Virus record (IMG/VR): IMGVR_UViG_3300033149_004284
Location: 22,288 to 86,287 of that record
Strand: one strand, 5' to 3'
From: a virus
DNA: 64,000 nucleotides
In this document: positions 15,743 through 46,380 of the stretch, piece by piece
Layout: every line of letters starts with the position of its first letter
How positions within the stretch are numbered: the stretch's first letter is position 1
Notes under the pieces: model-generated
What the model was told of the DNA's origin: nothing
Databases searched by the model: none
What the model saw: only the letters and a program-made list of their open reading frames with translations
Made by a program: the position numbers and the translations under genes

Positions 15743-15745
15743 CAG

Positions 15746-28121: not shown

Positions 28122-28193
28122 TTGTTGCGAATAGACTGATGGCGCAGGGGGCTCTGCTAAGTTGTGATAAGCTGGTCTAAGGAGATATCCATT

Positions 28194-29624
28194 ATGCCGA
28201 TTTTAGGGCGAATTGCAAAGAGACGACTGGTTGAGGCAGCGGTTCCTGTTGACGATACGGCTTCCGATACCTCTCGATGGCGCCGATTGACCGAGAAGGC
28301 CCCCAGGAACCTTTCTGACTACGACCACAAGCGAATGTTAGATATCGCCTTGTATCTCTATCGCTTCAATCCATTAGCCCATCGAGGCGTTGAGATCATG
28401 CGAGATTTCGTAGTGGGCAGTGGCATTCGTATTGAGGCCAAGGACAAATCCATCCAGTCAGTCATAGATAGGTTCTGGAACAATCCCGTTCATAAGATGG
28501 ATCGCCTGCTGGCCAGGATAGCCTTCGAGCTCAGTCTCTATGGGGAATTCATATCTCCCGCACTGGTAAACAGGCATAACGGGGATGTCGAGCTGAGTTA
28601 TATTTCCCCCCTCCAGGTCAAGGATGTCACTCTCAATCGAGGAAACCTTCTCCTGTTTGATTCAGTCGAGATCATGCCCACTGACATCTCTACCGAATCA
28701 TCGAAGCTCAAGGTCATCAACCTAGAGACAGATGTTGAGGCCCACCTCGATCCTGAGGACCCAAACTCGCCCTCCACCTATGGCTATCGAACTGGAGACT
28801 GTTTCTACTTCTCGGTGAACCGAGTAGGGGATGCCAGCCGTGGCCTGAGCGATCTCCTGGCTGTTGCCGATTTCGTAGACAGCCTCGACCAACTTATCTT
28901 CAATTCATTGGAACGCATGACCCACGAGACAGGCTGGCTCTGGGATATCGAGATGCAGGGGGCCTCAAATGAGCAATGCCAGCAGAAAGTCGCGGAGTTA
29001 GAGGCCGCTCCTCCCCGACCGGGCTCCTTCCTAGTCCACAACGAATGGGTCAAGTGGAACCCCATGAAGATCGGTCTGGAAGCCGAGAACGTCACTGACG
29101 AGTCTCTTCTCATTCGGAACTATGCCCTGGGTGGCATGGGAGTTCCCGTTCACTTCTTCAGTGAACCGCAAGGAGCAGGTCGTGCTGTCGCTGAGTCCAT
29201 GGCTGCTCCAGCCTATCAATCTCTGGAGTCTCGCCAGTCTGAAGTTGAGGGCTTTGTTCGGGAGATTCTGGACTTCGTCATAGACCAGAAACTCGTTCGG
29301 AAGATGCTAGACAGCAACTTGGATCGAAGCTATGATGTGATCATGCCAAAGATTTCCCTCCGCAATCTCCAGCGTACAGGAGGGGCCATGAACAGGACGG
29401 CGCAGGCTCTCAAGACCGCCCAAGACGAAGGTTGGATCGATAGCGAGCAAGGAAAGAAAGTCTTTGTGGCCATGCTGGAGCAACTTGGGCTGGGTGTAGA
29501 CCTCACTCCTAGCCAAGAGTTGCCAGGTGTCGCTTCTAGCCAAAGGCTACCGTCTGATGTAGGTTTTAGCCAGGCAGATGTAGGTGTCGCTTCTAGCCAG
29601 GAACTGCCCAAGGAGCTGCGCTGA
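28194..29624 (+). CDS. portal protein
   Basis: position after TerL; YRFNPLAHRGVE..DFVVG, ELSLYGE, RGLSDL, GVPVHFF; ATG at 28194 after AAGGAG. Confidence 0.85.
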   Translation: MPILGRIAKRRLVEAAVPVDDTASDTSRWRRLTEKAPRNLSDYDHKRMLDIALYLYRFNPLAHRGVEIMRDFVVGSGIRIEAKDKSIQSVIDRFWNNPVHKMDRLLARIAFELSLYGEFISPALVNRHNGDVELSYISPLQVKDVTLNRGNLLLFDSVEIMPTDISTESSKLKVINLETDVEAHLDPEDPNSPSTYGYRTGDCFYFSVNRVGDASRGLSDLLAVADFVDSLDQLIFNSLERMTHETGWLWDIEMQGASNEQCQQKVAELEAAPPRPGSFLVHNEWVKWNPMKIGLEAENVTDESLLIRNYALGGMGVPVHFFSEPQGAGRAVAESMAAPAYQSLESRQSEVEGFVREILDFVIDQKLVRKMLDSNLDRSYDVIMPKISLRNLQRTGGAMNRTAQALKTAQDEGWIDSEQGKKVFVAMLEQLGLGVDLTPSQELPGVASSQRLPSDVGFSQADVGVASSQELPKELR

Positions 29625-31102
29625 TGCAAATTGGTCTTTTGCTTAGCTCCAAACACCATGCTGAGATGTTAGCATCTGGTAACAAGACCATGCTCATCAG
29701 AGCGAGGCGTTTCTACCGCTATGTCCGCATACCAGTCTACCTGCTGGCTGATCAGAAGTGTTATGCCAAGATGGTTCTTGGGTCTCCCCAAAAAATAGAC
29801 CTGAGTGGGTTTAGAGCATTGCGGAGTCAACACAGAGTAACTGAAAAGGAAAGGGAGCAACAGTGGCCTGACGAACTAGACTTCTACAGCTATAAAGTCC
29901 AGGTTCTCGAAACTTACGATCCGCCTAAGAAGGTTAAGTTCCCTCCCACCTCTCAGGCTTGGGTACGCCATTGGGAATGGTTAGACCGCCCTCCCAAGGA
30001 GCTCCATCTTGAGAAGGTGGCTGACCTAGAACACTATCATCCGTCCAAGATTCCTGACACAGCACGCGGCAGTGCTATCCTCAGGGACGACGCTCGGCTA
30101 CTCTTGGCCTACTGGTCGTCAAAACGGTCAGGCAAGGATGTCAAATATACCTACGACCTCTTGGAGCAGAAGTACACAGCCATCCTCCGTGAACTCGTTC
30201 GCAGGAGAGCAGCTCAGTTCAGTCCTCAGAACTATAAGCCTCATGCTAGAGATCTATTTGACAGAGCTGCGCGAACCCTCCAGTTGGAAGGTATTACTGT
30301 CCCACTCAGAAAGAGCTCGCATCTGAAAGGACTCACAGCCCTCCAGAATATGACGGATAAGGAACTCCTGGCTCACCATGACCACTTGCATCAAATGTAT
30401 GCTGAGGGCAAAGTGACTAAGGAGAGCATCGTCAATGCTCATATCTTTGCAGTCCAGGCAATGAGACATAGGGGCCTATCTCACAAGATCGAGGATGACC
30501 TTGACAGGGAGCTCCAGGGATCTGCTGCATCACGCCTCGTCCCCTTCGTCATCATAGACTCAATGGTTTGTCAAACTGGCTCTTCTGTCTACGACATCAG
30601 GCCCCCTCACGACTGCGACTTAGTGATACGCAGCGATGAGGAAGACTCCAAGATGACCGCAGCTATCCTTAAGGCCGTTAACCTCCCTCCATCAACCATC
30701 CACCGTATTTATGAACCCAGAGGCCCCTCCTTTGACTATGTGGCCCTCCTGGATTATGTAGCAGTGCCAGTAGCCTGGAAAGGTACCTGGACGAAGAAGA
30801 GCATCCGCCCCGAGGACATCCCCGAACACTCTTGGGCTATCTATCGGCAGTTGCCTCCTGCCGTCTTAGTCCACGACCCCTTCGTCACTCAAAGCAACAA
30901 TACTTTCTACGTCCGAGATGCTCGCCGCAACACTGGCATTGAGATCAAGCTCACCAGGCTGTTAGCGGCTAACCTCTCCTTCCGATGGCGCGGGGAGGAC
31001 GAAGCCATGGCAGGAACGCCGCTCTTTAAGTCTTTCCTGATTCCACATATACCTCTGAGGAGGGCCAAAGTCGATGAGCCTTTCTTCCGAAGATACTACT
31101 GA
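29624..31102 (+). CDS. multidomain protein: ASCH/PUA-like, helical His-rich, nucleotidyltransferase-like
   Basis: HAEMLASGNKTMLIR (ASCH-like); ELLAHHDHLHQ..IVNAH..MRHRGLSH; QTGSSV..HDCDLVIR (Pol-beta GS..DxD). Confidence 0.6.
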   Translation: MQIGLLLSSKHHAEMLASGNKTMLIRARRFYRYVRIPVYLLADQKCYAKMVLGSPQKIDLSGFRALRSQHRVTEKEREQQWPDELDFYSYKVQVLETYDPPKKVKFPPTSQAWVRHWEWLDRPPKELHLEKVADLEHYHPSKIPDTARGSAILRDDARLLLAYWSSKRSGKDVKYTYDLLEQKYTAILRELVRRRAAQFSPQNYKPHARDLFDRAARTLQLEGITVPLRKSSHLKGLTALQNMTDKELLAHHDHLHQMYAEGKVTKESIVNAHIFAVQAMRHRGLSHKIEDDLDRELQGSAASRLVPFVIIDSMVCQTGSSVYDIRPPHDCDLVIRSDEEDSKMTAAILKAVNLPPSTIHRIYEPRGPSFDYVALLDYVAVPVAWKGTWTKKSIRPEDIPEHSWAIYRQLPPAVLVHDPFVTQSNNTFYVRDARRNTGIEIKLTRLLAANLSFRWRGEDEAMAGTPLFKSFLIPHIPLRRAKVDEPFFRRYY

Positions 31103-32186
31103 GATTCGTGGTCTCCTGTATCGAGATAGGCAGACTAAGGTGGCATTAAGGTTTCTCAAAAGGATAAATGTATCCCTAGAAGCCATTAGGCGAAACCTCG
31201 CAAGAGCAGAGGAGGCCCTTGCGGATGAGCCTCTATCTAGCAATGTGAGACTTCTAGCCGGCAAGTTTCTGCTAGCGGAGGAAGACATCCCTCTGGAGGA
31301 TTTGGGTATTCTGACAAAGACTCCAAATCTAGCCAGCATCATCATTCTGAACTACAATACTCTCAAGATCACCTCTGACTGTATCAAAAGCGTTCTAGCC
31401 TTGACTGAATACCCTGCGGAGATGATAGTAGTTGATAACGGCAGCACGGATGGCAGTGTGGCCTGGCTCAAGAAACAGAATTACCTAACTTTGATATCTA
31501 ACAAGAATAACCGTGGCTGGACTGCCGCAAACAATCAGGGCATCAGAGTCTCCAAAGGGGCCTACTGCCTGTTACTTAACAGCGATACCATTGTGAGGAC
31601 AAGGGGCTGGCTCAAAGCCATGATTCGCCTCGCTCAGCCCCCTGACGTGGCGACGGTCGGGGCCAAGCTTCTTTACCAAGATGGTACCATTCAGCATATA
31701 GGGGGCAGCATCCACGACGTCAATCCCTTCCATCCCTTTGACGGAGCGCCTGCCGACATTCCCGAATCACTTAAAGTCAGAGAAGTCCCTTTCAACACGG
31801 GGGCCTGTCTCCTTATCAAGAAATCCGTCATCGAGCGGGTGGGCTTACTTGACGAGAAATATGTGTTCGGTTATGGTGATGTGGACTATGGCTTGAGGTG
31901 TCTTGAGGCAGGATTTAGGAATCTCTACTGTCCATCGTCTATCCTAACTCATCTCTGGGCTTACACTCAGCGAAAAACAGGCAAGTGGATTCCATCTGAG
32001 AGCTTTGCCAGGTACAAACAGAAGTGGACTGACAAGACGCCCGCTCTCTCTAAAAAGGTTGACATGGATTTCAGGTGGCCTGATTCTGCACAGTATATCA
32101 GAAGGACTGGTCCGGGCAGTCATATAGCAACTATTCGCAAGAAGGAGAGCGCTATGACCTGGGGGGCATTAAATGAAAACCAATGA
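31074..32186 (+). CDS. GT2 glycosyltransferase
   Basis: SIIILNYN, VVDNGSTDGS, NRGWTAANNQG, LLNSDT, TGACLLI, DVDYGLR. Confidence 0.92.
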   Translation: MSLSSEDTTEIRGLLYRDRQTKVALRFLKRINVSLEAIRRNLARAEEALADEPLSSNVRLLAGKFLLAEEDIPLEDLGILTKTPNLASIIILNYNTLKITSDCIKSVLALTEYPAEMIVVDNGSTDGSVAWLKKQNYLTLISNKNNRGWTAANNQGIRVSKGAYCLLLNSDTIVRTRGWLKAMIRLAQPPDVATVGAKLLYQDGTIQHIGGSIHDVNPFHPFDGAPADIPESLKVREVPFNTGACLLIKKSVIERVGLLDEKYVFGYGDVDYGLRCLEAGFRNLYCPSSILTHLWAYTQRKTGKWIPSESFARYKQKWTDKTPALSKKVDMDFRWPDSAQYIRRTGPGSHIATIRKKESAMTWGALNENQ

Positions 32187-33024
32187 GTTTGAGCCTAAAG
32201 TCTTTGTCAAGAACGCAAAGGAATCTGGGCAGCAGGTATCTCTAACCATGGTCACCTTTAATCGGTGGAATCTCACTCAGCAGAGTCTCTCTTCCATTTT
32301 CGAGCACACTCATCTGCCATACATTCTGACTGTTGTCGATAACGGGAGCTGGGACGAGACGAGGGAAAACCTACAGGAACTCAGGCGGTCTGGTAAGATT
32401 AACAGATTGATTCTTCTCCCCGAGAACCGAGGCATTGACATGGGGAAGAACTTCGGCCTGCGAGCTACCCAGGGCCAGGCTAGCTGGTACTGCTGTATCG
32501 ACAACGATATCAGAGTCAGTCCCTACTGGCTCAGCTACCTCTGCTATACATCTACTCTCCCTCGCCTTGGCATAATCGGCTGCAATGTTCAGGGATTTGG
32601 CACTCCTGGAGGCCCGAGCTGGTTTACACCCACGCACTGGAAAACTGTGAAAGGAGTTGTCCTAGACAACTGCCCTAATCCAGGTGGAATCTATGTCATC
32701 AGTGCAACTACATTCGAGAAGCTAGGCTTCTTCGTTGAGAGGGGCCTCTACGGTCTAGGGGACAGCCAATACTACTCACGGGAGTTTCAACATGGCCTCA
32801 GAAGCGTCTATGTGAGAAATGTCGATTGCAGAGAGATACCTGATGAGGACTTTGTGATGGCAGACGGTACGTCGTATAGGACTTTCAAGGCGACTTCTCA
32901 CAACTCTATGCGTCAGAAGGTCAGAGAAATGGCATCTCAAGGCATTGATATCCACCCAAAGCATTACGAGACTAGAGTAACGGCCCAAGAAGTTGAGAAG
33001 TATACCTGGACGCCAGAATCATGA
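32173..33024 (+). CDS. GT2 glycosyltransferase
   Basis: VTFNR, VVDNGSWD, ENRGI, CIDND. Confidence 0.88.
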   Translation: MKTNEFEPKVFVKNAKESGQQVSLTMVTFNRWNLTQQSLSSIFEHTHLPYILTVVDNGSWDETRENLQELRRSGKINRLILLPENRGIDMGKNFGLRATQGQASWYCCIDNDIRVSPYWLSYLCYTSTLPRLGIIGCNVQGFGTPGGPSWFTPTHWKTVKGVVLDNCPNPGGIYVISATTFEKLGFFVERGLYGLGDSQYYSREFQHGLRSVYVRNVDCREIPDEDFVMADGTSYRTFKATSHNSMRQKVREMASQGIDIHPKHYETRVTAQEVEKYTWTPES

Positions 33025-33050
33025 CCTTAGATACTTAGGGGTCCCCAACT

Positions 33051-33527
33051 ATGATTTTAGATGCAGGATCAGGCATGGCATCGAACCCAAGAGCCAACAT
33101 ACTCATGGACAAATATCTTCAAGGAGACAGTACCTCTCGTATAACGGGCACTCTTATGATTCGCAAAGGACAGACTATGATTTGTGGTGACCTTGAGGCC
33201 ATGCCATTTCTGGATAAGTCCTTCGACATTGTTATTTGCTCTCAGACGCTCGAACATGTTGATAATCCTGAGAAAGCCTGTGCTGAGTTGGTGCGGGTAG
33301 GAAGGAGTGGTTTCATAACTGCGCCAAACGAGACAGTAGAAAGGCGTCGATATGAGCGTCGCGAGAAGCTCTATCACAAGTGGCTTATCAAGCAACGGGG
33401 CACTCACCTCGACTTCTATCTCAGAAGTCTCGTTCCAAGCCTCCCGATGATGGAGCATCCTAGCCAGGGCGTGGATATGGCTTGGAAAGGGAGCTTCACT
33501 TGGTCAGTGTTCAGAGAATCGCCATGA
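33051..33527 (+). CDS. class I SAM methyltransferase
   Basis: ILDAGSG, MPFLDKSFD..CSQTLEHVDNP..ELVRVG. Confidence 0.88.
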   Translation: MILDAGSGMASNPRANILMDKYLQGDSTSRITGTLMIRKGQTMICGDLEAMPFLDKSFDIVICSQTLEHVDNPEKACAELVRVGRSGFITAPNETVERRRYERREKLYHKWLIKQRGTHLDFYLRSLVPSLPMMEHPSQGVDMAWKGSFTWSVFRESP

Positions 33528-34516
33528 CAAGACTCCCCAGAGTCCTATTCGTTAGCATAGCTCCGTCTCTCCACACGGAGTTCTGGGCTGCTGGCTTTAT
33601 GAAGGCCCTTCGCAAAGTTGCCGTTCCACTGGCTTTCCCTTTCAGGAAAATGGCTCATGACCACGGGGCAGCCTACATGAACGAGACGCTAGTGGAAACT
33701 GCTCTGGAGTTTCGTCCTGACCTGATCTTTATTAGGAAGGGGGAAAGCATTCTCGGCTCTAGCATTAAGACGCTCAGGGATTCCCTGCCTGCTTATATCA
33801 TCTACTATTGTGGGGACTTCCGTCTCAATCCAGTCTCCTTCATCGTCGATATTGGACGATACGCAGATTGTACCATTTTCAACAACGAGGACGAGAAGGT
33901 TGCTGATAGATATCAGGTTGCGGGTGTGAGACATGTGGGTCCTTGGTGGGACGGTGGAATTGACCCAGAAGTCTTTTGCCCGCAAGACGTACCCAGAGCC
34001 TGGGACCTAGCCTTCATGGGCACTAACGTCCCCTTGCCTCACAGGGGCTATCAGGTACGTCGCCAACTACTGGAGGCTATCGTCGAGAGTAACTACTCTC
34101 TTCACATCTTCGGTGGGGCTGAAGGCTGGAAGTACCTCCACACGAATACCCACCCGTTCGTTTATGGCCCTGCTTTCGCTAAGGCCTGTTCTCAATCGCG
34201 TATCACTCTGGGCGTCAATGGAGTGAACGACATGTATCTGTATGCTTCCTGGCAACGTACTTTCAAGTCAATGGCCAGTGGAGCGTTTCACCTTACTCAC
34301 TATGTCCCTGGACTGGAGACGTTCTTTGAGAACCGCAAGCATCTGGTCTGGTTCATCTCCATACCTGAGGCGATGAGTCTCATTGCTTACTATCTCACTC
34401 ACGACGAGGAACGTGAAGAAATAGCCATGGCAGGCCGACAGGAGGTTCTTGCTCACTTCACTTGGGACGATGCTGTCGCAAGGCTTATGAGGATTTGGCA
34501 AAGTGACTGCTGTTGA
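33524..34516 (+). CDS. CgeB-like GT-B glycosyltransferase
   Basis: FRPDLIF..KG, DLAFMG, SRITLG.N, RTF..MASGAF.LT, YYLTHDEEREEIA..G..HFTW. Confidence 0.88.
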   Translation: MTRLPRVLFVSIAPSLHTEFWAAGFMKALRKVAVPLAFPFRKMAHDHGAAYMNETLVETALEFRPDLIFIRKGESILGSSIKTLRDSLPAYIIYYCGDFRLNPVSFIVDIGRYADCTIFNNEDEKVADRYQVAGVRHVGPWWDGGIDPEVFCPQDVPRAWDLAFMGTNVPLPHRGYQVRRQLLEAIVESNYSLHIFGGAEGWKYLHTNTHPFVYGPAFAKACSQSRITLGVNGVNDMYLYASWQRTFKSMASGAFHLTHYVPGLETFFENRKHLVWFISIPEAMSLIAYYLTHDEEREEIAMAGRQEVLAHFTWDDAVARLMRIWQSDCC

Positions 34517-35186
34517 ACAATACCGTAGGGACTTCGCCACGTACATGAGCCTTCCTGGAGCTGAGAGGTGTAGACTCCAAATGTATCCTCGTCTTGAGGA
34601 TAAGACCGCATCAACTCCCCTGGATGCCTATTACTTTCGACAAGATACCTGGGCGTTCAAGCGGATAGTAGACCTCAAGCCTAGCAGCATAGTAGATGTA
34701 GGATCGACTGCGCTCCTCGTGGGAATTCTTGCCCAGATGTTTCCTACAACGAGTATCGATATAAGGCCCATTCCAGTATCTCTTCCTGGATTAACATGTA
34801 GGCAAGGCTCGATCACTAATCTCCCCTTCAAAGACGCCTCAGTTGAGCTCCTGAGCAGCCTATGTGTGATAGAGCATATAGGTCTAGGTCGATACGGCGA
34901 CAAGCTCGATCCGCTCGGTAGCATCAAAGCCTGCAAGGAGATCTCGAGGGTGCTCAAGCCTGGTGGACATTTCATAATGAGCACTCAAGTGAGTCATACC
35001 CCTGCCCTCTGCTTCAATGCGCACCGAATCTTCACGCAGGCCCAAGTTCTGGATATGTTGCCAGCCTTCTCGGTAACGGATGAGGCGTTCTTCTTCCCTC
35101 GGCCTGGCAATGCAGAAGACATAGAGGCACTCACGGGTTTCAGGTTCTGCTTCTGGTGCGTAGACTTGGTTAAGGAGTCAGCATGA
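34503..35186 (+). CDS. SAM methyltransferase-fold protein (DUF268-like)
   Basis: YFRQDTWA, VDVGS, SLCVIEHIGLGRYGDKLDP, FNAHRIF. Confidence 0.82.
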   Translation: MTAVEQYRRDFATYMSLPGAERCRLQMYPRLEDKTASTPLDAYYFRQDTWAFKRIVDLKPSSIVDVGSTALLVGILAQMFPTTSIDIRPIPVSLPGLTCRQGSITNLPFKDASVELLSSLCVIEHIGLGRYGDKLDPLGSIKACKEISRVLKPGGHFIMSTQVSHTPALCFNAHRIFTQAQVLDMLPAFSVTDEAFFFPRPGNAEDIEALTGFRFCFWCVDLVKESA

Positions 35187-35986
35187 CGCTCTCGGTTGTA
35201 ACTCCTAGCTACATTAACAACCAGCAACGAGCTGATTGGGCCAGAGACTCTCTGGCTTCCCTCAGGGAAACTATCGGCGACGGCTACTTACATGTTGTGG
35301 TGCTTGACAAATCCCTTGAATGGAATATTATTGCTCAGGCAATCTATAACCAGCCTAATGTAATGCTCATGCAGCGTCCCAAGCCTCTTGGCAATACTTC
35401 AGCTTTGCTAAAGGCCGTGAAGGAATCTCGCAAGTTGGGAGCAGATCTCTGTTTTGTCCATATGGACGATAACATCTATGTCCCCGAATTCGGACCTCTT
35501 CTCAGATATGCCCAGGACGCTTTCAGCAACGATAGGGAGTTGCAAGAAGTGCTCTTTGTTGGCTACCCGATCCTTATAAAGAGGCATAGCAAACCACTTC
35601 TTGGCAATCGCACAGGCCTAACTATCGAGGAGAATCAAGTCTCTTTCGATACCATACAGTTGCACCCTACTCGCTGTACGGATTATACTCTCTGGTGGTC
35701 TTATTTTCATGACCGAATGGTGGACGGGCGATTTTGGGCAGTTGTCATGTGGATGGCTCTCTACCGAGCTGAGTTCTTGGAGAGTGTCCTTACACTTGCC
35801 CCTACGGGCCGGACGCTTGGTCAGGTTGAATCTTACTACAGAAACAGAAGCAACTGGGAGAGACTATCCCATCGCTTTCCAGGAAAGCTCGGTTACATAA
35901 ACATGCAGTTCGGCGGTTTGGAGATGCACCATCATAGTCAGGAATGGTGTGAGATGATCCGTTTTCCTAATACGCCTGTGAGGTGA
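35183..35986 (+). CDS. putative GT-A fold glycosyltransferase
   Basis: LSVVTPSY, VVLDKS, FVHMDDN; cluster context. Confidence 0.55.
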   Translation: MTLSVVTPSYINNQQRADWARDSLASLRETIGDGYLHVVVLDKSLEWNIIAQAIYNQPNVMLMQRPKPLGNTSALLKAVKESRKLGADLCFVHMDDNIYVPEFGPLLRYAQDAFSNDRELQEVLFVGYPILIKRHSKPLLGNRTGLTIEENQVSFDTIQLHPTRCTDYTLWWSYFHDRMVDGRFWAVVMWMALYRAEFLESVLTLAPTGRTLGQVESYYRNRSNWERLSHRFPGKLGYINMQFGGLEMHHHSQEWCEMIRFPNTPVR

Positions 35987-36022
35987 GACATATAGGAGAA
36001 GACTTACCTGTGAGGTGAAGGA

Positions 36023-36661
36023 ATGACTTACAGAGAGAATCCAGAACTAGGTCAGGACATGGTTAAGTTTGCCTTTCATCGTTGGCAGCAAGGAGAATAT
36101 CTCTTAGAGCCTCCTCAGCGTCAAATCTACGAGAATATTGCGGTCAGAGCGAAAGGCAAGACGGTCTGTGATATAGGCTCTGGAGCGGGACTGGGAACTA
36201 CTATCCTAGCACAAAGGGCTCAGTCAGTTATTGGCATCGAGAAGGTTGCGTCTTCCGTCAGGTTCTCTAGGAAATGTCATCCCCTAACAAATGTGCAGTT
36301 TCTGAATGAGGATATAGGGAAGTGCTCTCTTTCTGACAACAGTTTCGATGTAGTGGTGGCGGTTGAGGTGATAGAGCATATCGCAAACTACCAGGCAGCA
36401 CTGGATCAGATGGCTCGAATTCTGAAAGAGTCTGGAACCCTATACATCTCGTCTCCTAACAGGAATCAAGATATTAGAGGAGGAGCGTCAGGCGCAGGCC
36501 CGCCAAGGAACAAGTATCATGTTCGAGAGTGGACAGCCGAGGAGTTTCGGCATATTCTTCTCTCGCGCTTCAGTCAGGTTAGGCTTTCTGACTATACCCT
36601 TGACCCTTGCCTAGACTCCTGTACGCGAGTCTCGCCAGTTATCGCGATCTGTCGAATATGA
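36023..36661 (+). CDS. class I SAM methyltransferase
   Basis: VCDIGSGAGLG, FDVVVAVEVIEH, SSPN, HVREW. Confidence 0.9.
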   Translation: MTYRENPELGQDMVKFAFHRWQQGEYLLEPPQRQIYENIAVRAKGKTVCDIGSGAGLGTTILAQRAQSVIGIEKVASSVRFSRKCHPLTNVQFLNEDIGKCSLSDNSFDVVVAVEVIEHIANYQAALDQMARILKESGTLYISSPNRNQDIRGGASGAGPPRNKYHVREWTAEEFRHILLSRFSQVRLSDYTLDPCLDSCTRVSPVIAICRI

Positions 36662-37326
36662 GAACTCTGTGGATCGTTATTCCAGCAAAAGATGAGGCTG
36701 CTACTATTGCAGACCTAGTTGCCGAAGCCGCCCACTACGGAACGGTGTTAGTAGTTACCAGTGGGCCTTCAGACGATACTGGCCCAAGAGCTGCCAGCGC
36801 GGGAGCCCAGGTAATCTACAACGGCCAGAGCATTGCAGGAAAGATAGTCACTGGCTGGCAGAGAGCCCTCGACAACAATGCGACACGAGTCATAGTCATG
36901 GATGCAGGCGGATCGCATAGGCCATCAGATATCCCCCGTCTCCTGGCAGCAGAGGCTGACATCGTAATAGGCAGTCGGTTTGTGGCTGGAGGCCAATATC
37001 ATGGCAGATCGTGGCGCAGGGTATGCAGTCAAGTCATGGCTCTGCTCTGCAACCTAGCCCAACCAGGTAAACAGGTCCATGACTGGTCTAGCGGCTTCAG
37101 GTGTTATTCGGTAGAAGCAATTGGGCAGCTACTAGCCGTCCATTATAAATCTGATATGCACGCTTGGCAAATCGAGGTGCTAGGCTGGGCTAGGCGCTTG
37201 CACCTTTCAGTTGAGGAAGTCCCTATACAGTATACTGCTGGGCACTCGTCTCTCTCCTGGGATGGGGCTCTCAGGGCTCTCAATATATTGTTAGACATCT
37301 TGCTCCGCAGGTGGGTAGTCGGATGA
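36658..37326 (+). CDS. GT2, DPM1-like glycosyltransferase
   Basis: VIPAKDEA, VMDAGGSH.P, VIGSRFV.GG, DWSSGFRCY, EEVPI. Confidence 0.85.
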   Translation: MRTLWIVIPAKDEAATIADLVAEAAHYGTVLVVTSGPSDDTGPRAASAGAQVIYNGQSIAGKIVTGWQRALDNNATRVIVMDAGGSHRPSDIPRLLAAEADIVIGSRFVAGGQYHGRSWRRVCSQVMALLCNLAQPGKQVHDWSSGFRCYSVEAIGQLLAVHYKSDMHAWQIEVLGWARRLHLSVEEVPIQYTAGHSSLSWDGALRALNILLDILLRRWVVG

Positions 37327-38396
37327 TATTCTACCTTGATACATACATTACTGACGAGCCTCTCCATCCTGCGTTTGTTTGGCCAAACAGGGAGATCAGG
37401 AACTCCTGTCCCCAGTATAAGATGCCACGGAGAATAGATATCACAAAGTACACGCTTGCGAGTTATAAGATGATTCCGTGGACACATGTTGTCATCGCAT
37501 ACGATGTTGCTGATAAGGATGATGAAAGCACGTTCCTGGACTTTGTGCAAGAAGTTTTCCCAGACGCAGATGTTAGTCGGCCTCGCTCCTCTAACCAGAA
37601 GACGTACAGGGCAAGAGTGGAGCAAGTTTGCAGTTTTGAGGATGACTTCATCTTTTATGCACCTAACAACGATCATCCCCTCATAGCAAGCAATCTCAAT
37701 CACCTGCCCAAGTTACTCAAAAAGGCTTCAAGGTTCTCACAAAACTACCCATTTGTCTCCGTTGTCTACTCGCACTTCAGTGAGTTCGTCAACGCGCCTG
37801 TCGTTGGGAGTCCTTTCTACAGACAGTTCTCTAGCGACTCACGCATAGTAGAAGACGACGAGATTGCTACGAGCTTTGTGAGATTCAATGGCGACAACTC
37901 TTCTATCCAGATCGTCAATAGGAATCTCCTGCAACACTGGTTTTGCTCACATGATCTCGGTGATGCCAGAATCATCAGAGCAGAAGATGTTCGCAGGTTT
38001 CTTCCAACTCCTAACCAGTTGATGATAGTGCCCAAGAAGGAGCTCTGTGCGCACTTTGACGGCTACTCGCATACAACTGGTATCACTAAGATCAGTCCTG
38101 ACCAGATTCCTCCTCTATTCATTCCAACAGGGTTCTTCGACAGCTCGATTCGGATCGCCTACGGATATCCAGAATACCGAGATGGCTGGGTAAACATAAA
38201 CCCTTCTGCGAGGGATTTCAGTTTCCGCGACCGAAAGACGGGCACAGATCTGAAAATTGGTCTTCAGGACATACCTCTTTTCTGGAAGAGCAGAATCGCA
38301 GAAATAGACATCAATGTGAATGCCGACCTCGAGCGAATTAAGGAGGGCAGAGAGAAATACTTTGAGACAGTTCGTAACCCCTGGAGGAAAGCCTAG
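37323..38396 (+). CDS. hypothetical protein, possibly GT-A fold
   Basis: 357 aa; IFYAPNNDH at a DxD-like position, ELCAHFDGY; cluster context. Confidence 0.5.
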   Translation: MIFYLDTYITDEPLHPAFVWPNREIRNSCPQYKMPRRIDITKYTLASYKMIPWTHVVIAYDVADKDDESTFLDFVQEVFPDADVSRPRSSNQKTYRARVEQVCSFEDDFIFYAPNNDHPLIASNLNHLPKLLKKASRFSQNYPFVSVVYSHFSEFVNAPVVGSPFYRQFSSDSRIVEDDEIATSFVRFNGDNSSIQIVNRNLLQHWFCSHDLGDARIIRAEDVRRFLPTPNQLMIVPKKELCAHFDGYSHTTGITKISPDQIPPLFIPTGFFDSSIRIAYGYPEYRDGWVNINPSARDFSFRDRKTGTDLKIGLQDIPLFWKSRIAEIDINVNADLERIKEGREKYFETVRNPWRKA

Positions 38397-38971
38397 TGAT
38401 CAAGTTGCATATAGGCTGTGGCCCCAGAGTGCTAAAGGGATGGATAAATATCGATCTCAAGTTCACTCCTTACCAGGCGTACCTGAAATACTACACTGAC
38501 AAGTACTACCCAGAGTCCGCTAGGGGCGACAAGTCAGATTTTCTTGCACTAGATGTGTCTAGGCAGCCTTTGCCCTTTCCTGACAATTCGGTAGATGTCG
38601 TCTTCCATGAGGACTTCCTTGAGCACCTGAACCAGCGTAGCCAAGTTCTCTTCCTAGCTGATTCTCTCCGAGTCTTGAAGCCAGACTCCATTCATCGAAT
38701 TGATACGCCTAACCTGTTAGCATCGATGCGCGATCACTCTAATTTCTCCCTTGGCTTTCAGGGTGTCTATGTCCATGAGTGGGATAAGTCCAAGCATCTC
38801 AATGTATTGACCCCTAGCTCGCTTGAAGAGATGGCTCTTATGGTTGGATATTCAACAGTAGTCTTCACAGGTAGAAACCAAAGTGCGTCGCCTCTGATTC
38901 CGCCTGAGTATCGCCCTGATCCAAGAGATCGGCCCGAGAACGGAAACATCTTTGCAGATTTGGTTGCTTAG
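38396..38971 (+). CDS. class I SAM methyltransferase
   Basis: KLHIGCG..GWINID, LPFPDNSVD..EDFLEH, RVLKP..RIDTP. Confidence 0.88.
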   Translation: MIKLHIGCGPRVLKGWINIDLKFTPYQAYLKYYTDKYYPESARGDKSDFLALDVSRQPLPFPDNSVDVVFHEDFLEHLNQRSQVLFLADSLRVLKPDSIHRIDTPNLLASMRDHSNFSLGFQGVYVHEWDKSKHLNVLTPSSLEEMALMVGYSTVVFTGRNQSASPLIPPEYRPDPRDRPENGNIFADLVA

Positions 38972-38981
38972 GAGTAGCGCC

Positions 38982-39860
38982 TTGAGGATATTTGTTCTTC
39001 CTGTGTCGTCTCAGTTTCAACCTCCTCCCATGAAGATTCTCTATCCTCCTCACAACAAGCGAGACTACGGCATTGAGCAAGACTTCGCTCAGCATCTCAC
39101 AGAGCCTTCTAGTGACTGGACGATCGCAGAGTCTTCTGACGTTGCTGATTGGCATTACCTTCCTATCTACTGGACACGTTACCATGTGACACATAACTAT
39201 GCCAAGACTGGCCTAGAAGCACTTCAGCGTGAAGTTGCCCGAAGAATCATTGACGACAAAAGGACCTTTACAATTTGCCAGTATGATGATGGGCCTTTGG
39301 TAGACCTTGGTAGAACTGTGCAGTTTCTAGGGTCTCGCAAAGGGGAAGAAGGCATCGACGTCCCTCTTCTTTCCTATCCTCATAAGCTCCCTGCAGTTGA
39401 TCCCCCTAAACAGTGGTTAGCGTCTTTTGCAGGGAGACTCCGAACGCACGAGGTTCGCGCAGACATGCAGCGTGTTCTGGGGCCTCGCCAGGACATTGAC
39501 ATTCAGGACACACGCAAAACCAGTAGATTCTTTGTAGACTTGATCCTTCGGTCGTATGTTTCCCTCTGTCCCAGGGGATGGGGTGGCTCGTCTTTTAGGT
39601 TTTATGAATCTATGCAACTGGGAGTAGTGCCCCTTCTCATTGGCAGCATAGACACCCGCCCCTTCAAACGTTTCCTGAACTGGAGTATAATGAGTCTCTA
39701 TGCTCGCACGGCCGAGGAAGCAAATGTGTCCCTCGACTCCCACACTCTGACAGAATTGCTAGAGATGGGGCGATGTGCCAAGAAAGCCTGGCATCAAGAT
39801 CTATCGTTTGGGCACTGGCACAAGTATGTGTTTCAGGAATTGGAGGCTCTATGGCATTAA
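38982..39860 (+). CDS. exostosin-family (GT47-like) glycosyltransferase
   Basis: LASFAG...H.VR, SLCPRGWGGSSFRFYESMQLGVVP; TTG start after AGGAG. Confidence 0.85.
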   Translation: MRIFVLPVSSQFQPPPMKILYPPHNKRDYGIEQDFAQHLTEPSSDWTIAESSDVADWHYLPIYWTRYHVTHNYAKTGLEALQREVARRIIDDKRTFTICQYDDGPLVDLGRTVQFLGSRKGEEGIDVPLLSYPHKLPAVDPPKQWLASFAGRLRTHEVRADMQRVLGPRQDIDIQDTRKTSRFFVDLILRSYVSLCPRGWGGSSFRFYESMQLGVVPLLIGSIDTRPFKRFLNWSIMSLYARTAEEANVSLDSHTLTELLEMGRCAKKAWHQDLSFGHWHKYVFQELEALWH

Positions 39861-41305
39861 AGCACCATCAGCACTCTCTACAGGCCGAGGCGGTATGGGG
39901 GAAAGCCTACGGCGTGTTTGATCGAATTGTTCAGTTGAGAGGTTTCAGGACTGGCGTCGAGGTTGGCGTTGCTTTTGGAGGGCACATAGAAGCACTTCTC
40001 AACATCCCCACTATTGAGAAGGTCTATGGAGTTGATCCCTATCAGCAAACAGGAACTAGCAGCTCCTTGGGCCTCTCGCAGTCTGAGATGGATACCCTCT
40101 ATCTCTTCGTTCTGAACAGACTTGCCCCGTTTGGCGATCGTTACCAGCCTGTACGAAAAAGCTCGGTAGAGGCATCGTCTATCATCCCGCAGGAGATTGA
40201 TTTCGTCTACATAGACGCTGACCATTCCTACCAGGAAGTTATGGCGGATCTCTGTGCTTGGTTTCCCAAAGTACGCGAAGGCGGGATAATTGGCGGCCAT
40301 GACTATTCTCATCCTGACTTGCCAGGAGTTAAGAAAGCCGTGGATAGATTCTTCAGTCGGTTTGCTCAGCGCGTTCACTCACTAGGCGAATATGTCTGGT
40401 GGATAGAGAAGAAGATGCCCAGCATCAGCTTCGTATTGCCTGCATACAACTGCGCTGAGTTCGTCGAGGAGTCTGTGAAGTCTATTCAGAAGGGGAACTT
40501 TGAAGATGGCGACGAGCTCATCATTGTTGACGATGGCTCATCTGACAATACCCTGATGATTTTGCAGAGACTGGCCGCGTACTATCCCTCAATAAGGCTT
40601 CTCAAACACGACAGTAATAGGGGCGCATCAGCAGCCAGGAATACAGCGATAGCCAGTGCCAAGAACTCCCTACTCTTCAACCTAGACTCAGATAATATCC
40701 TAGTGCCAGGCAGCATCCCCAAACTCAAAACATATTTGATTAGCTCCAATGCTGATATAGCAGTGTTCGAGGAGACGCGTTTCTTTAGAAACGGAACTGG
40801 CCAGATAACACACAGCTGGAAGTATGGCCCAGGTCTGTTGACTCTATCCGACTGCTTGGCTGGCCAAATAACTCCTGGGGCTAGTGGGAACTATATGTTC
40901 ACTAAGGAGTCCTGGGCCAAAGCTGAAGGTTACCCTGAGTTCGCAAAGACCTATGAAACCTGGGGATTCGCCTTCAGGCAGCTAGCCACAGGCTCCAAAA
41001 TGATGGCAATGCCCGACTCTTTCTATCTCCATAGGTATGGCCATTCGTCACTCTGGGTGCGAGAAGGAGGAAATCGGAACGCTTCTCGGAAAACTCTAAA
41101 GATGATTCTGCCCTTTCTTGGCCTGCTTGACTACAAGGACGTTGAATACATAATGAGCCACAAGGAGACCTGGCTTACTAACTTATCTCAGCACCCAATA
41201 CGAGTCAAGGGGAGCGCTCCTGGGAATTCGGGCAGCATCAAACTCCAGAGCCCTCCACTTGACTATATGGAGCTTTTGTGTCAGAATATAGACGAGGAGA
41301 CATAA
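39851..41305 (+). CDS. SAM methyltransferase-GT2 fusion
   Basis: GVEVGVAFG, DFVYIDADHSY, GGIIGGHDY; then SFVLPAYN, VDDGSSD, GASAARN, LDSDN. Confidence 0.92.
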   Translation: MALKHHQHSLQAEAVWGKAYGVFDRIVQLRGFRTGVEVGVAFGGHIEALLNIPTIEKVYGVDPYQQTGTSSSLGLSQSEMDTLYLFVLNRLAPFGDRYQPVRKSSVEASSIIPQEIDFVYIDADHSYQEVMADLCAWFPKVREGGIIGGHDYSHPDLPGVKKAVDRFFSRFAQRVHSLGEYVWWIEKKMPSISFVLPAYNCAEFVEESVKSIQKGNFEDGDELIIVDDGSSDNTLMILQRLAAYYPSIRLLKHDSNRGASAARNTAIASAKNSLLFNLDSDNILVPGSIPKLKTYLISSNADIAVFEETRFFRNGTGQITHSWKYGPGLLTLSDCLAGQITPGASGNYMFTKESWAKAEGYPEFAKTYETWGFAFRQLATGSKMMAMPDSFYLHRYGHSSLWVREGGNRNASRKTLKMILPFLGLLDYKDVEYIMSHKETWLTNLSQHPIRVKGSAPGNSGSIKLQSPPLDYMELLCQNIDEET

Positions 41306-41892
41306 TGATTGACTACAAGACAACCGCTGGTTTCTCCCTGACACTTGAGGAGCGTGAGTTCCTCAAAGACTCTGCTGAGGGCTCTGGCTCCATTGTCAGT
41401 ATCGAGTCTGGCCCCTGCGCTGCGCTATGGTGCTTCAGGGCAGGCGCGCCTGAGTCTTCCATCTACAGCGTGAAGGAGCAAGGATCGATCATAGATGGTG
41501 ATCCAGGAGTAACTATCCTTAGTGGCTTTTCTGACTTCCCTGGAAACTCTGTAGACCTGCTCTTCATAGATGGCTCACATGCTTTCAAGGATGTTCTACT
41601 CGACTTAGTTACTTGGCAAGATAGCATCCCGCTGAAAGGCTTAGTGGTCCTTCACGACTATGAGCACAACAATATGCCTGAAGTTAAGCTGGCTACTGAG
41701 TTCTGGCTCAAGAACGTCACCAGGAAAACCTGGCAGCCGATTGAGGCTCCTGGCTCTCTCTTTGCCCTCAGGCGTATTGCTCGTGGGAGGAAGCCAGCTG
41801 TTGTCCCCGTAGAGGCCCTCAAGGAACAGCACGCTGAGCAAGAGAGCGTATCAGAGAAGGCAACCGGCCAAGTGGACCCTAGACAGGACTGA
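41305..41892 (+). CDS. SAM methyltransferase (Methyltransf_24-like), degenerate motif I
   Basis: VDLLFIDGSH, GLVVLHDY. Confidence 0.75.
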   Translation: MIDYKTTAGFSLTLEEREFLKDSAEGSGSIVSIESGPCAALWCFRAGAPESSIYSVKEQGSIIDGDPGVTILSGFSDFPGNSVDLLFIDGSHAFKDVLLDLVTWQDSIPLKGLVVLHDYEHNNMPEVKLATEFWLKNVTRKTWQPIEAPGSLFALRRIARGRKPAVVPVEALKEQHAEQESVSEKATGQVDPRQD

Positions 41893-41903
41893 GGAGGGAA
41901 TAG

Positions 41904-42233
41904 ATGAGGTACTGCCCCATGTGCGACATCGCTTTGGGCTCACCTGAAGCCCACAAGACCGAATGGTTCTATCATTCAAGGGCAGTTACTATCGTTGAAG
42001 ACCTTGATCCCAAGGGCTATGTCCTAAGGCTCTTGGGCGTACCTCGCAAACATTTCGACTGTGAGGCTACAGGGGAGCTTATAGCAGCGATCCGCCAACA
42101 GACCATTGAGATAGCCTTAGGTGTAGCGCGGGCAATATGTCTGGAGCGAGGGCTAGCAATTGCCCAGATCGATACTGAGCATCATTCATTCAGAGATCAC
42201 TGGCATCTCCAGGTCTGTCTGAGTTTGAGGTGA
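41904..42233 (+). CDS. HIT-like nucleotide hydrolase/transferase
   Basis: CPMC, VPRKH, HWHLQ (HxHxQ). Confidence 0.6.
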   Translation: MRYCPMCDIALGSPEAHKTEWFYHSRAVTIVEDLDPKGYVLRLLGVPRKHFDCEATGELIAAIRQQTIEIALGVARAICLERGLAIAQIDTEHHSFRDHWHLQVCLSLR

Positions 42234-42239: not shown

Positions 42240-45200
42240 ATGTCTGAGCTTCTGATTCGCAAGGTCGGCAACATCTGCTTTGTGCTGGACGAGAAGGGCA
42301 AAGATGTCTCAGGTGACTATGCAGACAGCCTTAACCAGTACAGAGATCTCGGGTTGTCCTCATTCTCCCTGTCAGCGCTGGGCTATGAGAATTCTCTCTA
42401 TCCTACTGACTGCCTGGAACTATCAGGGGAGAGCCTGGCTGAGCTCTCCCATCAGGAACGGGTAGACTTGTTCCTCACGGCTCTTCCCCAAGACCAGGAT
42501 ATCTCCTTCCGGCAATCGAAGCAAGTAGAGCTATTCAAACCCTTCACTCCGCTGAAGGCCCGCACTGGCTATGGTCTCTATGAGTTCAATAACAAACAAG
42601 ACCTCTGGGAGATGTGGGCCAAGGAGCGCATAGAGGCCAAGCGACCGATTGCTGTTCAGGCCAAGTTTGACGGTATCCGGCTTATCGTATTCAGGAAGGG
42701 CGACAGAGTTCAGATGCTCACCGAGGATAAGAAACGAGACCGTGCTTCTATTCTCCCTGAAGTCGTAGCAGAGATTAAATCTCTGCCAGGCGACTCCTGC
42801 ATACTGGATGTGGAAGCTGTCATTTGGCAGGAGAATCAGCCCATTCCTCGTCGTGAGATGATAAAGATGGTTGTGGGCAAAACACCTCTCAGGGGTGAGG
42901 ATATCCACATTAATGTCCACGATTGTCTGCTAGTAGATGGTAAGCCTCTTAACACTGAGCCCTACTCGGTGCGATTGGCAGCTCTTGACGAACTTCTCCC
43001 TAAGGATAAGAAGTTTCTCAGAAAGGCTCAAACTTGGGTAGCTAAGACTAAAAGCGAGTTCCTGTCTGCCCTCGACAAGGCATCTGCTTATCCTGGCTCA
43101 GAAGGAGCTATGGTCAAAACCTTGGATAGCGACTATCCTATTCGGGGTCGTACCCGAGAAGAGACTGCTGACTGGGGAAAGTTAAAGTTGGCGGTGGAGC
43201 TGCATTGCAAAGTCATAGGGCGTACTCGCAAGCCTAATCCCTGGCCTCCTGACGAACGCCCCAAACGCAATCTCCAGGGTGATGAGGCCCTTAAAGCCTT
43301 TCGTAAGTTGCAGAAAGGCTCCAAGACTTTCTACTATCGCTGTGCCCTTCGGGACGGTAAGAAGCTCATCCCTATCGACTCTGAGCACAAGCTGACTCCT
43401 GGAAACCTCTCCCTCAAGTGGGACGCCGAACACGAGGGCGGAGTCTGGAAAGGCACTGACGACCCTGAAATCTGGGAGATGGCTAAGGGTTTTGAGAACA
43501 GGCCCCGAGGCGACTGGGCTTATGGCAATACCTACGCCGTTAAGTACGACCCTCCGCCGAAACTGGGCGATATCATCACAGTGGCTCCCATCCTGATGCG
43601 AGCCTGGAAGGACAACAGCACTACTCACTACTCCTGGACTTTTCCTAGATGCAAAGAGTTTGATCCTACCCGTACACAGCCTGACACCGTCCAGGACGCA
43701 GAGCGCATCGTGGCAAAGTCTCCCAAGTCCATCCGCAAGCATGTTCGTCCTGGGCCTTTTGGGCATCCTGGAGGCAAAACCGTCTTGCTGAAGCATATCC
43801 TGCCTAGGATACCTGCCCATGAGACTTATTGTGAGCCTTATGTCGGATCAGGGGCTGTATTCTTCGCCAAGCCCAAAGCCCACAAGTCAGTTCTAGGGGA
43901 TACAGACCCTGAGATAATAGCAGCCCTCCGCTTTGTTCGGGACGCCTCAGCAGAGGATATCGAATGGCTGCGCAAGCAGAACTGGCAGCCGTCCAAGGGT
44001 CGCTGGCAGTTCCTCAAGGATCAAAAGCCAGTCCGCAAACGAGAGCGCTTCTATCGCTTTAGATACCTGGATATCAACTCCTGGGCTCACTCGCCTGCTA
44101 AAGGCTTCGCCCGTAGCAACCAGCCCGCATCCATGAAAGCCGAAATGGATAAGATCAGGGCAGGCCAGCAGAAACTACGTGGCAATGTCTCTATCGTCCA
44201 GCAAGACGCCTTCAAGACTATGCGGGAGAATGACTCACTGTCTACTTTCCACTACATTGATCCGCCCTATTGGGGCAGTGGTGACCTTCAGCCCTATGGT
44301 GGTAAGGCCCCTGACCCCGAAGCCCTTGTTAAGTTCCTCAAAGGACTACGCGGCAAGTGGCTACTATCCATGGCAGACAAACCTAGAACGCGCAAGGCCT
44401 TCAAGGATTTCAATATCAAGTCAGTCTCTCGTCAAATGACTTATACAGTTTACTCGCGTAAGACTAAGGCTGGTCAGCCAACACGCACTCGCCGTGAGCT
44501 CCTAATTGCTAACTACGACTTCGCCGATCTCCACGAAGCCGTAGTTCCTCCTGGCGAAGGCGAGAAACCCACCCACAAGAAGCAGCGTGCTGAGGCTGAG
44601 CGCAAGTTCGGCGATCCCTACATGGTTCACCAACCTCCCGACAAAACCTTTCCCTTTGTCTATATGCACCATGAGCGGGGTATCTGGACTCAGGCTGAGC
44701 TTGTGGGCCTACGCGCCGCACTCAAGAACGCCAGACGATATCCTGATCTTATTCCTGACATCTGGAAACGTTACAAGCCTGTCGTCCTAACGACTAGCCT
44801 AGAGTCTCTCAGGCGAGACGCAGAGGCAACCTCCGAGAAGCGGGGTGATGTCACTGCTGCTGTCCACAAGCACCTTGACGAGAAACCTCCCAAAGTTCTT
44901 CCTTCCAACAACAAGATACTCAATGTGGGCAATGTCCATGGTGACTGGCGAATGCGCTCTCCAGAGGGCGAGTTCCTCATTGGGTGGACCCTCTCTACCC
45001 CGTCGGTTGTACTCCAGTTTGCCGACGGCAAAACCGTCTATCCTATCAGGGACAGATTCCTTGAGAACAAGGAGGGCGACAAGATAGTAGCCTACCGCAA
45101 GTGTCCTAATCCACTCTGTGACGAGGAGCGCTATTTACGCCTAGTTGAATCCAATCCTCATGAGAGCGTGTCCCAGATGTTCGCCAGCGAGGAGGGCGAA

Positions 45201-46351: not shown

Positions 46352-46380
46352 TTGACAAGCGCAGCATAACCGGTTATAAT
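46352..46380 (+). promoter_or_regulatory. consensus sigma70 promoter upstream of the capsid gene
   Basis: TTGACA-N17-TATAAT. Confidence 0.9.

Follow-up and report, generated by a model that had tools for sequence, protein, structure and literature searches.

A glycosyltransferase and methyltransferase gene cluster between the portal and capsid genes of an uncultured phage as a candidate pathway for virion glycosylation

What is the role of a long run of sugar- and methyl-transferring enzymes inserted in the middle of a phage head operon? The question is raised by a 64,000-nucleotide stretch of the IMG/VR virus record IMGVR_UViG_3300033149_004284 (hereafter the window; bases 22288-86287 of the 86,287-bp contig C244, all positions below being given in the numbering of the 64-kb window), in which such a cluster occupies positions 31074-42233, that is, ~11 kb or 13% of the phage genome. 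The answer that we favour, and hold to be probable rather than assured, is that virion proteins are glycosylated late and in the cytoplasm, the glycan being O-methylated. To our knowledge, experimental demonstrations of phage-encoded virion glycosylation are limited to a few mycobacteriophages, in which it shields the particles from antibodies; virion glycosylation in giant algal viruses is textbook knowledge.

The cluster is made up of 14 plus-strand open reading frames (ORFs), which fill the interval between the portal gene and the protease and capsid genes and encode eight glycosyltransferase (GT) domains, six S-adenosylmethionine (SAM)-dependent methyltransferase (MT) domains and one HIT-fold protein (Table 1, where each gene may be recognized by its first coordinate). 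The genes are closely packed: the junctions at the likely starts 33524, 35183, 36658, 37323, 38396 and 41305 are overlaps of 4 nt or 1 nt, including the one ahead of the CgeB-like gene, and the largest intergenic gap measures 36 nt. On the left, the first gene overlaps the gene for a 492-aa protein by 29 nt and, on the right, the cluster ends 6 nt before a gene whose product combines DNA ligase, Dam methyltransferase and protease domains. The overlaps and the 6-nt distance leave no room for a promoter and terminator of the cluster's own, and a 'moron' reading, which posits both, was rejected on the grounds of the upstream overlap and the gap to the next gene. Since the right-hand neighbour carries an XkdF-type protease domain, the slot is properly described as 'portal to protease'. 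None of the 14 proteins contains a convincing membrane helix (maximal mean Kyte-Doolittle hydropathy over 19 residues ≤1.67), and none has two or more hydrophobic segments.

An earlier note, prepared from the nucleotide letters and their translations, had described 14 tightly coupled genes between portal and capsid, encoding six clear GT domains and two more, putative GT-A proteins, together with six MT domains and a HIT-like enzyme, with no gene for nucleotide-sugar synthesis, a flippase, a polymerase or a multi-pass membrane protein. The gene count and coupling agree with the ORFs, their overlaps and their flanks. Pfam recovered the six GT domains (three GT2, one DPM1-like, one CgeB-like and one exostosin/GT47-like), the DPM1-like one weakly, as well as the MT domains at 33051, 34503, 36023, 38396, 39773 and 41278. 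The HIT-like enzyme was borne out by a match between predicted structures, and the absences within the cluster by profile searches and hydropathy.

The two further GT-A proteins were recognized by other means. In the case of 35183, homologues at 46-54% identity carry PF00535, one of them being named a GT2 family protein, and an H-x-DD motif is invariant in the alignment of the family. In the case of 37311, the predicted structure has a GT-A fold, with matches (VIA Z 10-11 over ~190-210 residues) to GnT-I, POMGnT1, Mimivirus R699, a chlorovirus hyaluronan synthase, GnT-II and GalNAc-transferases, which are GT13, GT16, GT27 and GT2 enzymes; because the Foldseek TM scores are low, just the catalytic core is shared with them. 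Clustered at 50% identity, the 37311 family falls into 536 groups, of which 260 are at E ≤ 1e-30. Its members are 40-70% identical across matches labelled as candidate phyla radiation (CPR) bacteria, DPANN archaea and metagenome contigs, they have in common the near-invariant motifs Y-x-P-N-N-D-H-P and C-A-H-F-D-G-Y-S-H, and many are fusions of 560-800 aa, some with a Methyltransf_11 domain. A tblastn search of GenBank phages with the 37311 protein gave no match, and PDB sequence searches with the 37311, 34503 and 41278 proteins returned nothing useful; the top PDB sequence matches of the MT-GT2 fusion 39773 are chondroitin and heparosan synthases. The HIT-fold protein 41904 has a CxxC motif at its N-terminus and a GalT-like H-x-H-x-Q at its C-terminus, and had no Pfam, NCBIfam or PDB sequence match; our guess would be that it handles a sugar nucleotide.

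Conservation of the cluster in place could be followed in the only close relative that was found, IMGVR_UViG_3300029813_000617 (91 kb; loci L001, L003 and L099), alongside which the fragments L002 and L098 came up. A portal-based scan of the JGI metagenomes yielded only one 3.4-kb fragment, and a megablast search of GenBank phages with the cluster gave no match. In the synteny comparison that the earlier note had proposed, the relative proved to hold its cluster in the same portal-to-protease slot, in a longer version of ~13.5 kb. Eight cluster orthologues are 47-74% identical, a range that also takes in the portal, capsid and tail-tube proteins (66%, 64% and 67%, respectively) and the tape measure. 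Kept are both GT2 genes (31074 corresponding, at 74% identity, to the second of two GT2 domains in a 609-aa protein), the CgeB-like GT (53%), the DUF268-type MT, the 267-aa GT2-like protein, the class I MT and the GT47-like enzyme, the small MT being more distant. Missing are 36607, 37311, the fusion 39773, 41278 and the HIT-fold gene. The relative has instead an extra GT2 domain, a second CgeB-like gene, a Methyltransf_24 gene and another GT2, along with a series of tailoring genes, namely a PglD-like hexapeptide acetyltransferase, two DegT-family aminotransferases and a GNAT. These amino-sugar tailoring genes indicate that the cassette builds a specific glycan, and a conserved core with an exchangeable periphery is the pattern typical of surface-glycan loci.

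A ninth GT, 50645, lies outside the cluster and beside the tail-tube gene, the start of which is overlapped by its end by 4 nt. The relative keeps an orthologue (62.5% identity) with an identical overlap. The protein is borderline for Glyco_trans_1_2 (25.3 bits versus a cut-off of 25) and is matched only by gp6 of Streptomyces phage KimJongPhill (E 1e-23), whose gene is grouped with those for an epimerase and an MT just upstream of the terminase.

When IMG/VR was scanned with alignments built from the 35183, 34503 and 37311 families, further contigs emerged in which the same enzymes adjoin structural genes. Contig L100 (57.9 kb) has a capsid of a different family (phrog_212), followed in order by a fibre-like gene, a 1192-aa fusion of a GT2, two CgeB-like domains and an MT, and then the small MT, the GT2-like protein, the DUF268 MT and the class I MT, at 46-63% identity to their counterparts in the cluster. 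In L105, a CgeB-like gene and a DUF268 MT stand immediately upstream of a PF05065 capsid gene. The complete 79.7-kb genome L103 (IMGVR_UViG_3300009499_000008), which has terminal repeats, carries a glycan block at 8865-17069, downstream of a Sipho_Gp37-like tail gene; it consists of a DegT gene, a DUF268 MT, a GT2, a reversibly-glycosylated-polypeptide-like protein, a B12-binding radical-SAM enzyme, a GT47 and a second GT2. The B12-radical-SAM and reversibly-glycosylated-polypeptide-like genes are hints of C-methylated or furanose sugars. As regards single families, identities are 49% for the CgeB-like GT of L100, 62-68% for the DUF268 MT of the relative (L099), L100 and L103, and 56-57% for the class I MT of L099 and L100. 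In the 205-kb contig L004, a 37311 homologue is found among genes for a GDP-mannose dehydratase, an epimerase, a nucleotidyltransferase and GT4, GT2 and GT47 enzymes. In mid-sized phages, therefore, at least four independent contexts show the toolkit repeatedly placed within structural modules.

Several lines of evidence thus point to the virion as the destination of the glycan: the genes encode soluble proteins, are coupled to head genes and are conserved at the same position in the relative; phage contigs that are unrelated have homologues of the core enzymes next to their capsid or tail genes; a ninth GT is coupled to the tail-tube gene; and the experimentally studied cassette of mycobacteriophage Corndog, discussed below, occupies the same portal-to-protease slot. 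We propose a soluble glycan-building line that would be expressed alongside the head and tail genes and would act in the cytoplasm of the infected cell. CgeB-type GT-B enzymes (33482, and 50645 at the tube) would prime structural proteins, whether already assembled or still being assembled, at Ser/Thr residues, the GT-A/GT2 and GT47 enzymes would lengthen the chain using host nucleotide sugars, and the six MT domains would O-methylate the sugars. The product would be a methylated, hydrophobic and hydrolase-resistant glycan coat on the capsid and/or tail. The MTs are assigned to the glycan because GT-MT fusions exist in 39773, in L100 and in the 37311 family, and the scheme as a whole draws on three precedents: the modification of Thr112 of CgeA by CgeB, the Corndog cassette and chlorovirus A064R. 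From the genes we infer that virion proteins are the acceptor, which GT does the priming, that the MTs act on sugar hydroxyls and that the phage benefits.

In Corndog, a phage of cluster O, gp35-gp38 (an O-MT, two GTs and a GlcNAc-transferase) are encoded between the genes for portal and capsid protease (PMC4351075), and glycosylation of its virions is reported (PMC12363180, citing Freeman 2023; also cited in PMC12619734). The order portal, cassette, protease, capsid is the same here, soluble GTs are likewise mixed with O-MTs, and the proposed target, capsid plus tail tube, is also the same; the Corndog enzymes are not virion components. However, the Corndog cassette has four genes with three GT and one MT domains, as compared with 14 genes plus the tube-linked one, with nine GT and six MT domains, in the phage studied here, the host of which is not an actinobacterium. 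Neither is there detectable homology: the best phmmer --max match had an E of 0.095 (gp35 versus the 36023 MT) and all GT pairs had E > 0.2, which leaves fold-level similarity only. Moreover, a CgeB-like GT, a GT47, the new GT-A family and a HIT-fold protein have not been described for Corndog. In the cluster F phage Che8, as cited in PMC12619734 and PMC11256854, gp108-110 are associated with virion glycosylation at the C-termini of the capsid and tail-tube proteins. Che8 thus also uses phage-encoded soluble GTs for capsid and tube, which may be compared with the tube-coupled GT and the main block beside the capsid genes in our case. However, its GT genes lie at the right genome end rather than in the head operon and show no sequence similarity, and the capsid and tube proteins studied here lack obvious C-terminal Ser/Thr-rich extensions.

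Two more distant systems bear on the chemistry. Chlorovirus PBCV-1 encodes A064R, a cytoplasmic protein with two rhamnosyltransferase domains and a 2-O-MT domain that acts on the capsid glycan, and also A111/114R (PMC7826918). As in the proposed pathway, the major capsid protein receives a methylated glycan made by virus-encoded enzymes in the cytoplasm, independently of organelles, and there are multidomain GT-MT proteins, to which 39773-41305 and the 1192-aa fusion of L100 correspond by domain content. In contrast, PBCV-1 is a eukaryotic giant virus with dispersed genes, and its glycan is N-linked at atypical sites. In Bacillus subtilis, CgeB glycosylates Thr112 of the spore-crust protein CgeA, and SpsA-type GT2 enzymes are also present (PMC13577073). 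There, too, soluble enzymes of the CgeB family (PF13524) and GT2 enzymes act on a self-assembling shell in the cytoplasm, and by analogy CgeB/CgeA may be taken as the closest model, in functional terms, of how a capsid lattice could be primed. The spore crust is, however, a cellular system for which no MTs are described, and only the Pfam family is shared (33482, E 2e-25). The cluster is accordingly a much enlarged, non-homologous analogue of a known type of system, in a phage whose host is far from the Actinobacteria, and with a new GT-A family. The earlier note had called it much larger than the known phage systems; this holds for virion-linked cassettes, but not for GTs per genome, since 13 GTs are reported in the genome of cyanophage S-SCSM2R (PMC12801897), more than here, although not in a head operon.

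A number of observations weigh against glycosylation of the virion. Neither the capsid nor the tube protein ends in a Ser/Thr-rich C-terminal extension, which leaves sites in internal loops as a possibility, and no tripeptide or N-x-S/T sequon is enriched in the virion proteins beyond repeat-derived motifs; Asp-Thr-Gly occurs three times in the virion set, each time in the last tail protein (61172 ORF). A phmmer comparison with Che8 gp108-110 and Corndog gp35-38 gave no significant similarity. Late expression of the cluster is deduced from its position, and the promoter at 46352 means that the capsid gene can be transcribed separately from the cluster. The likeness of 36607 to polyprenyl-phosphate sugar synthases, as far as it goes, would point to a lipid-linked, envelope-directed step. 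Finally, the host is uncultured. For the virion-directed cytoplasmic pathway already proposed in the earlier note, solubility, coupling and conserved placement therefore speak in favour; the acceptor is deduced, with no motif to mark it and no homology to validated enzymes.

What the contig lacks bears on the alternatives. No GtrA-like flippase, GtrC, GT-C enzyme, Wzx/Wzy polymerase or ABC transporter was found on the 86-kb contig, nor any initiating phosphoglycosyl transferase (Bac_transf), the sole match to which is on contig C286 of the metagenome-assembled genome (MAG) to which C244 was binned. The only multi-pass membrane candidates on the phage contig are the tape measure, small two-helix ORFs and an antisense artefact. 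A ThyA-like hydroxymethylase (PF00303) has no match in the whole assembly, other routes to modified bases not having been searched. These absences disfavour both an envelope pathway of the undecaprenyl phosphate (Und-P)/Gtr type and DNA glycosylation of the T-even type. Epimerase and NTP_transferase matches, indicative of sugar-nucleotide synthesis, are likewise absent from the phage contig. The suggestion that the sugars come from the host pool as host sugar nucleotides is therefore true for this contig, but the aminotransferases and acetyltransferases in the version of the relative tailor sugar nucleotides.

Remodelling of the host envelope, in which the enzymes would, during infection, build or modify a polysaccharide of the cell surface (lipopolysaccharide, capsule or S-layer glycan), is in our opinion unlikely. 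Such a change could block superinfection or stop progeny sticking to debris, and a polyprenyl-phosphate sugar made by 36607 would feed host membrane transferases. In serotype-converting cassettes of temperate phages, the flippase GtrA accompanies the bactoprenol glucosyltransferase GtrB and GtrC. One gene of the cluster, 36607, is GtrB/DPM1-like: its product matches the GtrB-like phrog_841 and aligns end to end with the PpgS, AglJ and DPM1-type synthases of NCBIfam. In addition, GT2, GT47 and GT4-type enzymes are families common in polysaccharide loci, and the chondroitin and heparosan synthases matched by 39773 are in keeping with such a role. Against this, the membrane and export components listed above are lacking on the contig, GtrA and GtrC among them, and the genes lie within the head operon; the tyrosine integrase (PF00589) that would suggest lysogenic conversion was not found on the phage contig, its matches being confined to other contigs of the MAG. 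Moreover, 36607 scores far under the family cut-offs (59-66 bits for PpgS and AglJ, versus cut-offs of 325-370) and belongs to the variable part, no orthologue having been found in the relative. Envelope remodelling also leaves unexplained the placement in the head operon and the capsid-adjacent placement in other lineages.

We also consider it improbable that the enzymes work off the particle, either by making a methylated oligo- or polysaccharide that stays free or by glycosylating a small molecule or, during takeover, host cytoplasmic proteins. The solubility of all the enzymes and the lack of a visible acceptor motif in the virion proteins would fit such a target, as would a weak NCBIfam similarity to the mycofactocin GT and MT pair, since sets of this kind can modify small molecules. 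The mycofactocin similarities are, however, far below the cut-offs, takeover functions are usually encoded by early phage genes, and a soluble target does not account for the tube gene's conserved coupling or for the repeated capsid-adjacent placement. In the case of DNA hypermodification, the GTs and MTs would put (methylated) sugars on modified bases to evade restriction, as happens in T-even phages and in other phages with glycosylated hydroxymethyl pyrimidines. DNA modification is the classical role of phage GTs (reviewed in PMC12619734, which cites Pyle 2024), and DNA-acting enzymes do share the operon, in the form of the ligase and Dam domains of the neighbouring 1343-aa protein. Hypermodification is nevertheless very improbable given the missing hydroxymethylase, a set of eight GT and six MT domains that far exceeds known needs for DNA glycosylation, a late structural operon with the replication genes on the other strand, the recurrence of the core enzymes beside the capsid genes of other phages and the apparent dependence of this phage on DNA methylases instead.

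If virion glycosylation is thus retained as the preferred reading, it is tempting to go one step further. A portable 'virion glycan' toolkit may circulate among unrelated uncultured tailed phages and always land in their structural modules, with a core in which a CgeB-like GT for priming is combined with a divergent GT2, a DUF268-type MT and other class I SAM MTs, and which is joined by the GT-A family without a Pfam model. Here, it would have grown to a 15-gene line that coats head and tail with a heavily O-methylated heteroglycan, its variable half diversifying like an O-antigen locus. We put this forward tentatively, as a possibility with slightly less than even chances. The devotion of 13% of a genome to such enzymes, within the head operon and at the tail tube, in a phage of a deep-branching host, suggests that particle glycans are widespread and chemically rich. 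Were the toolkit indeed portable, sugar-coated virions would be a general phage trait beyond the Actinobacteria. Were they widespread, this would have a bearing on phage adsorption, protease and hydrolase resistance, environmental persistence and evasion of grazing or immune recognition, and also on virion proteomics, in which modified peptides would be missed. The cluster also supplies candidate enzymes, namely the GT-A family, DUF268-type sugar MT candidates and natural GT-MT fusions.

Table 1. Coordinates of the cluster genes, of the tube-linked pair and of the other features of the window
Feature	Position	Strand	Evidence and remarks
GT2	31074..32186	+	PF00535 E 8.8e-24
GT2	32173..33024	+	PF00535 E 2.2e-17; orthologue in relative 63% identical
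Small SAM MT, 158 aa	33051..33527	+	Methyltransf_11 E 4e-13; motif I-like LDAGSG at residues 3-8
CgeB-like GT-B	33482..34516	+	Glyco_trans_1_2 (PF13524) E 2.2e-25, 89.7 bits versus cut-off 25; likely start ATG 33524 (4-nt overlap)
DUF268-type SAM MT	34503..35186	+	DUF268 E 1.6e-12; Methyltransf_11 E 1.6e-8
Divergent GT2-like (GT-A) GT, 267 aa	35183..35986	+	No Pfam match of its own; homologues with PF00535
Class I SAM MT	36023..36661	+	Methyltransf_31 E 2e-20; Methyltransf_11 E 1.6e-18
DPM1/PpgS-like GT2	36607..37326	+	PF00535 exactly at cut-off; phrog_841 (GtrB-like) E 4e-5; likely start ATG 36658 (4-nt overlap)
GT-A-fold protein, family without Pfam model	37311..38396	+	AlphaFold (AF2) pLDDT 94.8; likely start ATG 37323
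SAM MT	38396..38971	+	Methyltransf_11 E 1.4e-7; 31% identical to 166-aa MT of relative
Exostosin/GT47-like GT-B	38952..39860	+	PF03016 E 2.6e-17; 54% identical in L099, 53% in L103
Methyltransf_24 + GT2 fusion	39773..41305	+	PF13578 E 4e-13 (residues 63-178); PF00535 E 7e-27 (residues 219-358)
Methyltransf_24 MT	41278..41892	+	PF13578 E 2.4e-9; likely start ATG 41305
HIT-fold protein, 109 aa	41904..42233	+	Atlas structure match to HIT family cluster, TM 0.78 over 101 residues
Ninth GT (GT-B, GT1/GT4/CgeB-like)	50645..51808	+	phrog_7162 E 4e-31; Glyco_trans_1_2, Glyco_trans_1_4
Tail tube	51805..52761	+	Phage_tube_2 E 4e-21; 67% identical in relative; candidate acceptor
Large terminase, apparently split	25178-27506	+	Nuclease half (Terminase_6C, phrog_38) is an ORF of its own, 26574-27506, after a 162-aa ORF
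Portal	28164..29624	+	phrog_10963 E 1.3e-34; 66% identical to portal of relative; left edge of slot
492-aa basic protein	29624..31102	+	No Pfam/PHROG match; end overlaps first GT gene by 29 nt
1343-aa DNA ligase + Dam methyltransferase + XkdF-type prohead protease	42240..46271	+	PF01068, PF02086, PF14550; right edge of slot
Sigma-70 consensus promoter	46352..46380	+	TTGACA-17-TATAAT, 12/12 matches; ahead of capsid gene
Major capsid protein, 892 aa	46635..49313	+	Phage_capsid_4 E 8e-36, HK97-type domain at residues 586-888; 64% identical in relative
Last ORF, >942 aa, runs off window	61172-64000		Tail-spike/virion structural PHROGs on 5-8 repeated stretches

By its gene content, the contig looks like a phage. 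Replication-type genes are on the minus strand up to ~21 kb of the contig, DNA methylases are also encoded, and a long plus-strand block holds the split large terminase, portal, capsid, tail-tube, tape-measure and tail spike-like genes. A terminal repeat was not found on the contig, which may miss ~1 kb. C244 is the longest contig of a 411-contig, 2.57-Mb MAG that is 85.5% complete. The RpoB of the MAG is at most 63% identical to RpoBs of Ignavibacteria, KSB1, Calditrichales and Gemmatimonadota MAGs, and its order comprises 16 species-level MAGs only; the host is therefore an uncultured, deep-branching bacterium, linked to the phage by binning alone. The portal gene is absent from all 15 of the 15 other genomes of that order, and there are no nucleotide matches between the phage contig and the other contigs of the MAG, hence no spacer hits. 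A recent capture of the cluster from the binned host was considered and rejected, the cluster proteins being just 24-44% identical to MAG genes.

Some features of the neighbouring genes deserve mention. The relative has an ORF that matches the nuclease half of the terminase, with 62% identity. MuF-like head proteins usually occupy the position held here by the 492-aa protein, the N-terminal ~125 aa of which appear ASCH-like in a poor Atlas structure model; it is kept in all three relatives that reach that point (57% identity in the close relative, 50% in L098). The relative keeps the ligase-Dam-protease protein in a version of 1507 aa (64-71% identity), with the protease domain C-terminal. It may be delivered into the capsid by way of its protease/scaffold part and ejected with the DNA, for anti-restriction or repair.

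The 360-bp spacer before the capsid gene contains a terminator-like hairpin (46590-46611) in addition to the promoter, both falling within a 72-aa ORF (46327-46611 region) that is possibly no real gene; transcription of the capsid gene probably begins at a strong start of its own. The N-terminal part of the capsid ORF displays four CPxCG zinc-ribbon motifs, a protease/scaffold-like region and a Pro/Glu-rich linker, and this extended architecture is kept in the relative (913 aa) and in L002. For a 232-aa protein encoded downstream of the capsid gene, the predicted fold has a pLDDT of 38. The last ORF of the window is rich in N-V-A-(V/I)-G-type motifs, which are reminiscent of the head repeats of trimeric adhesins.

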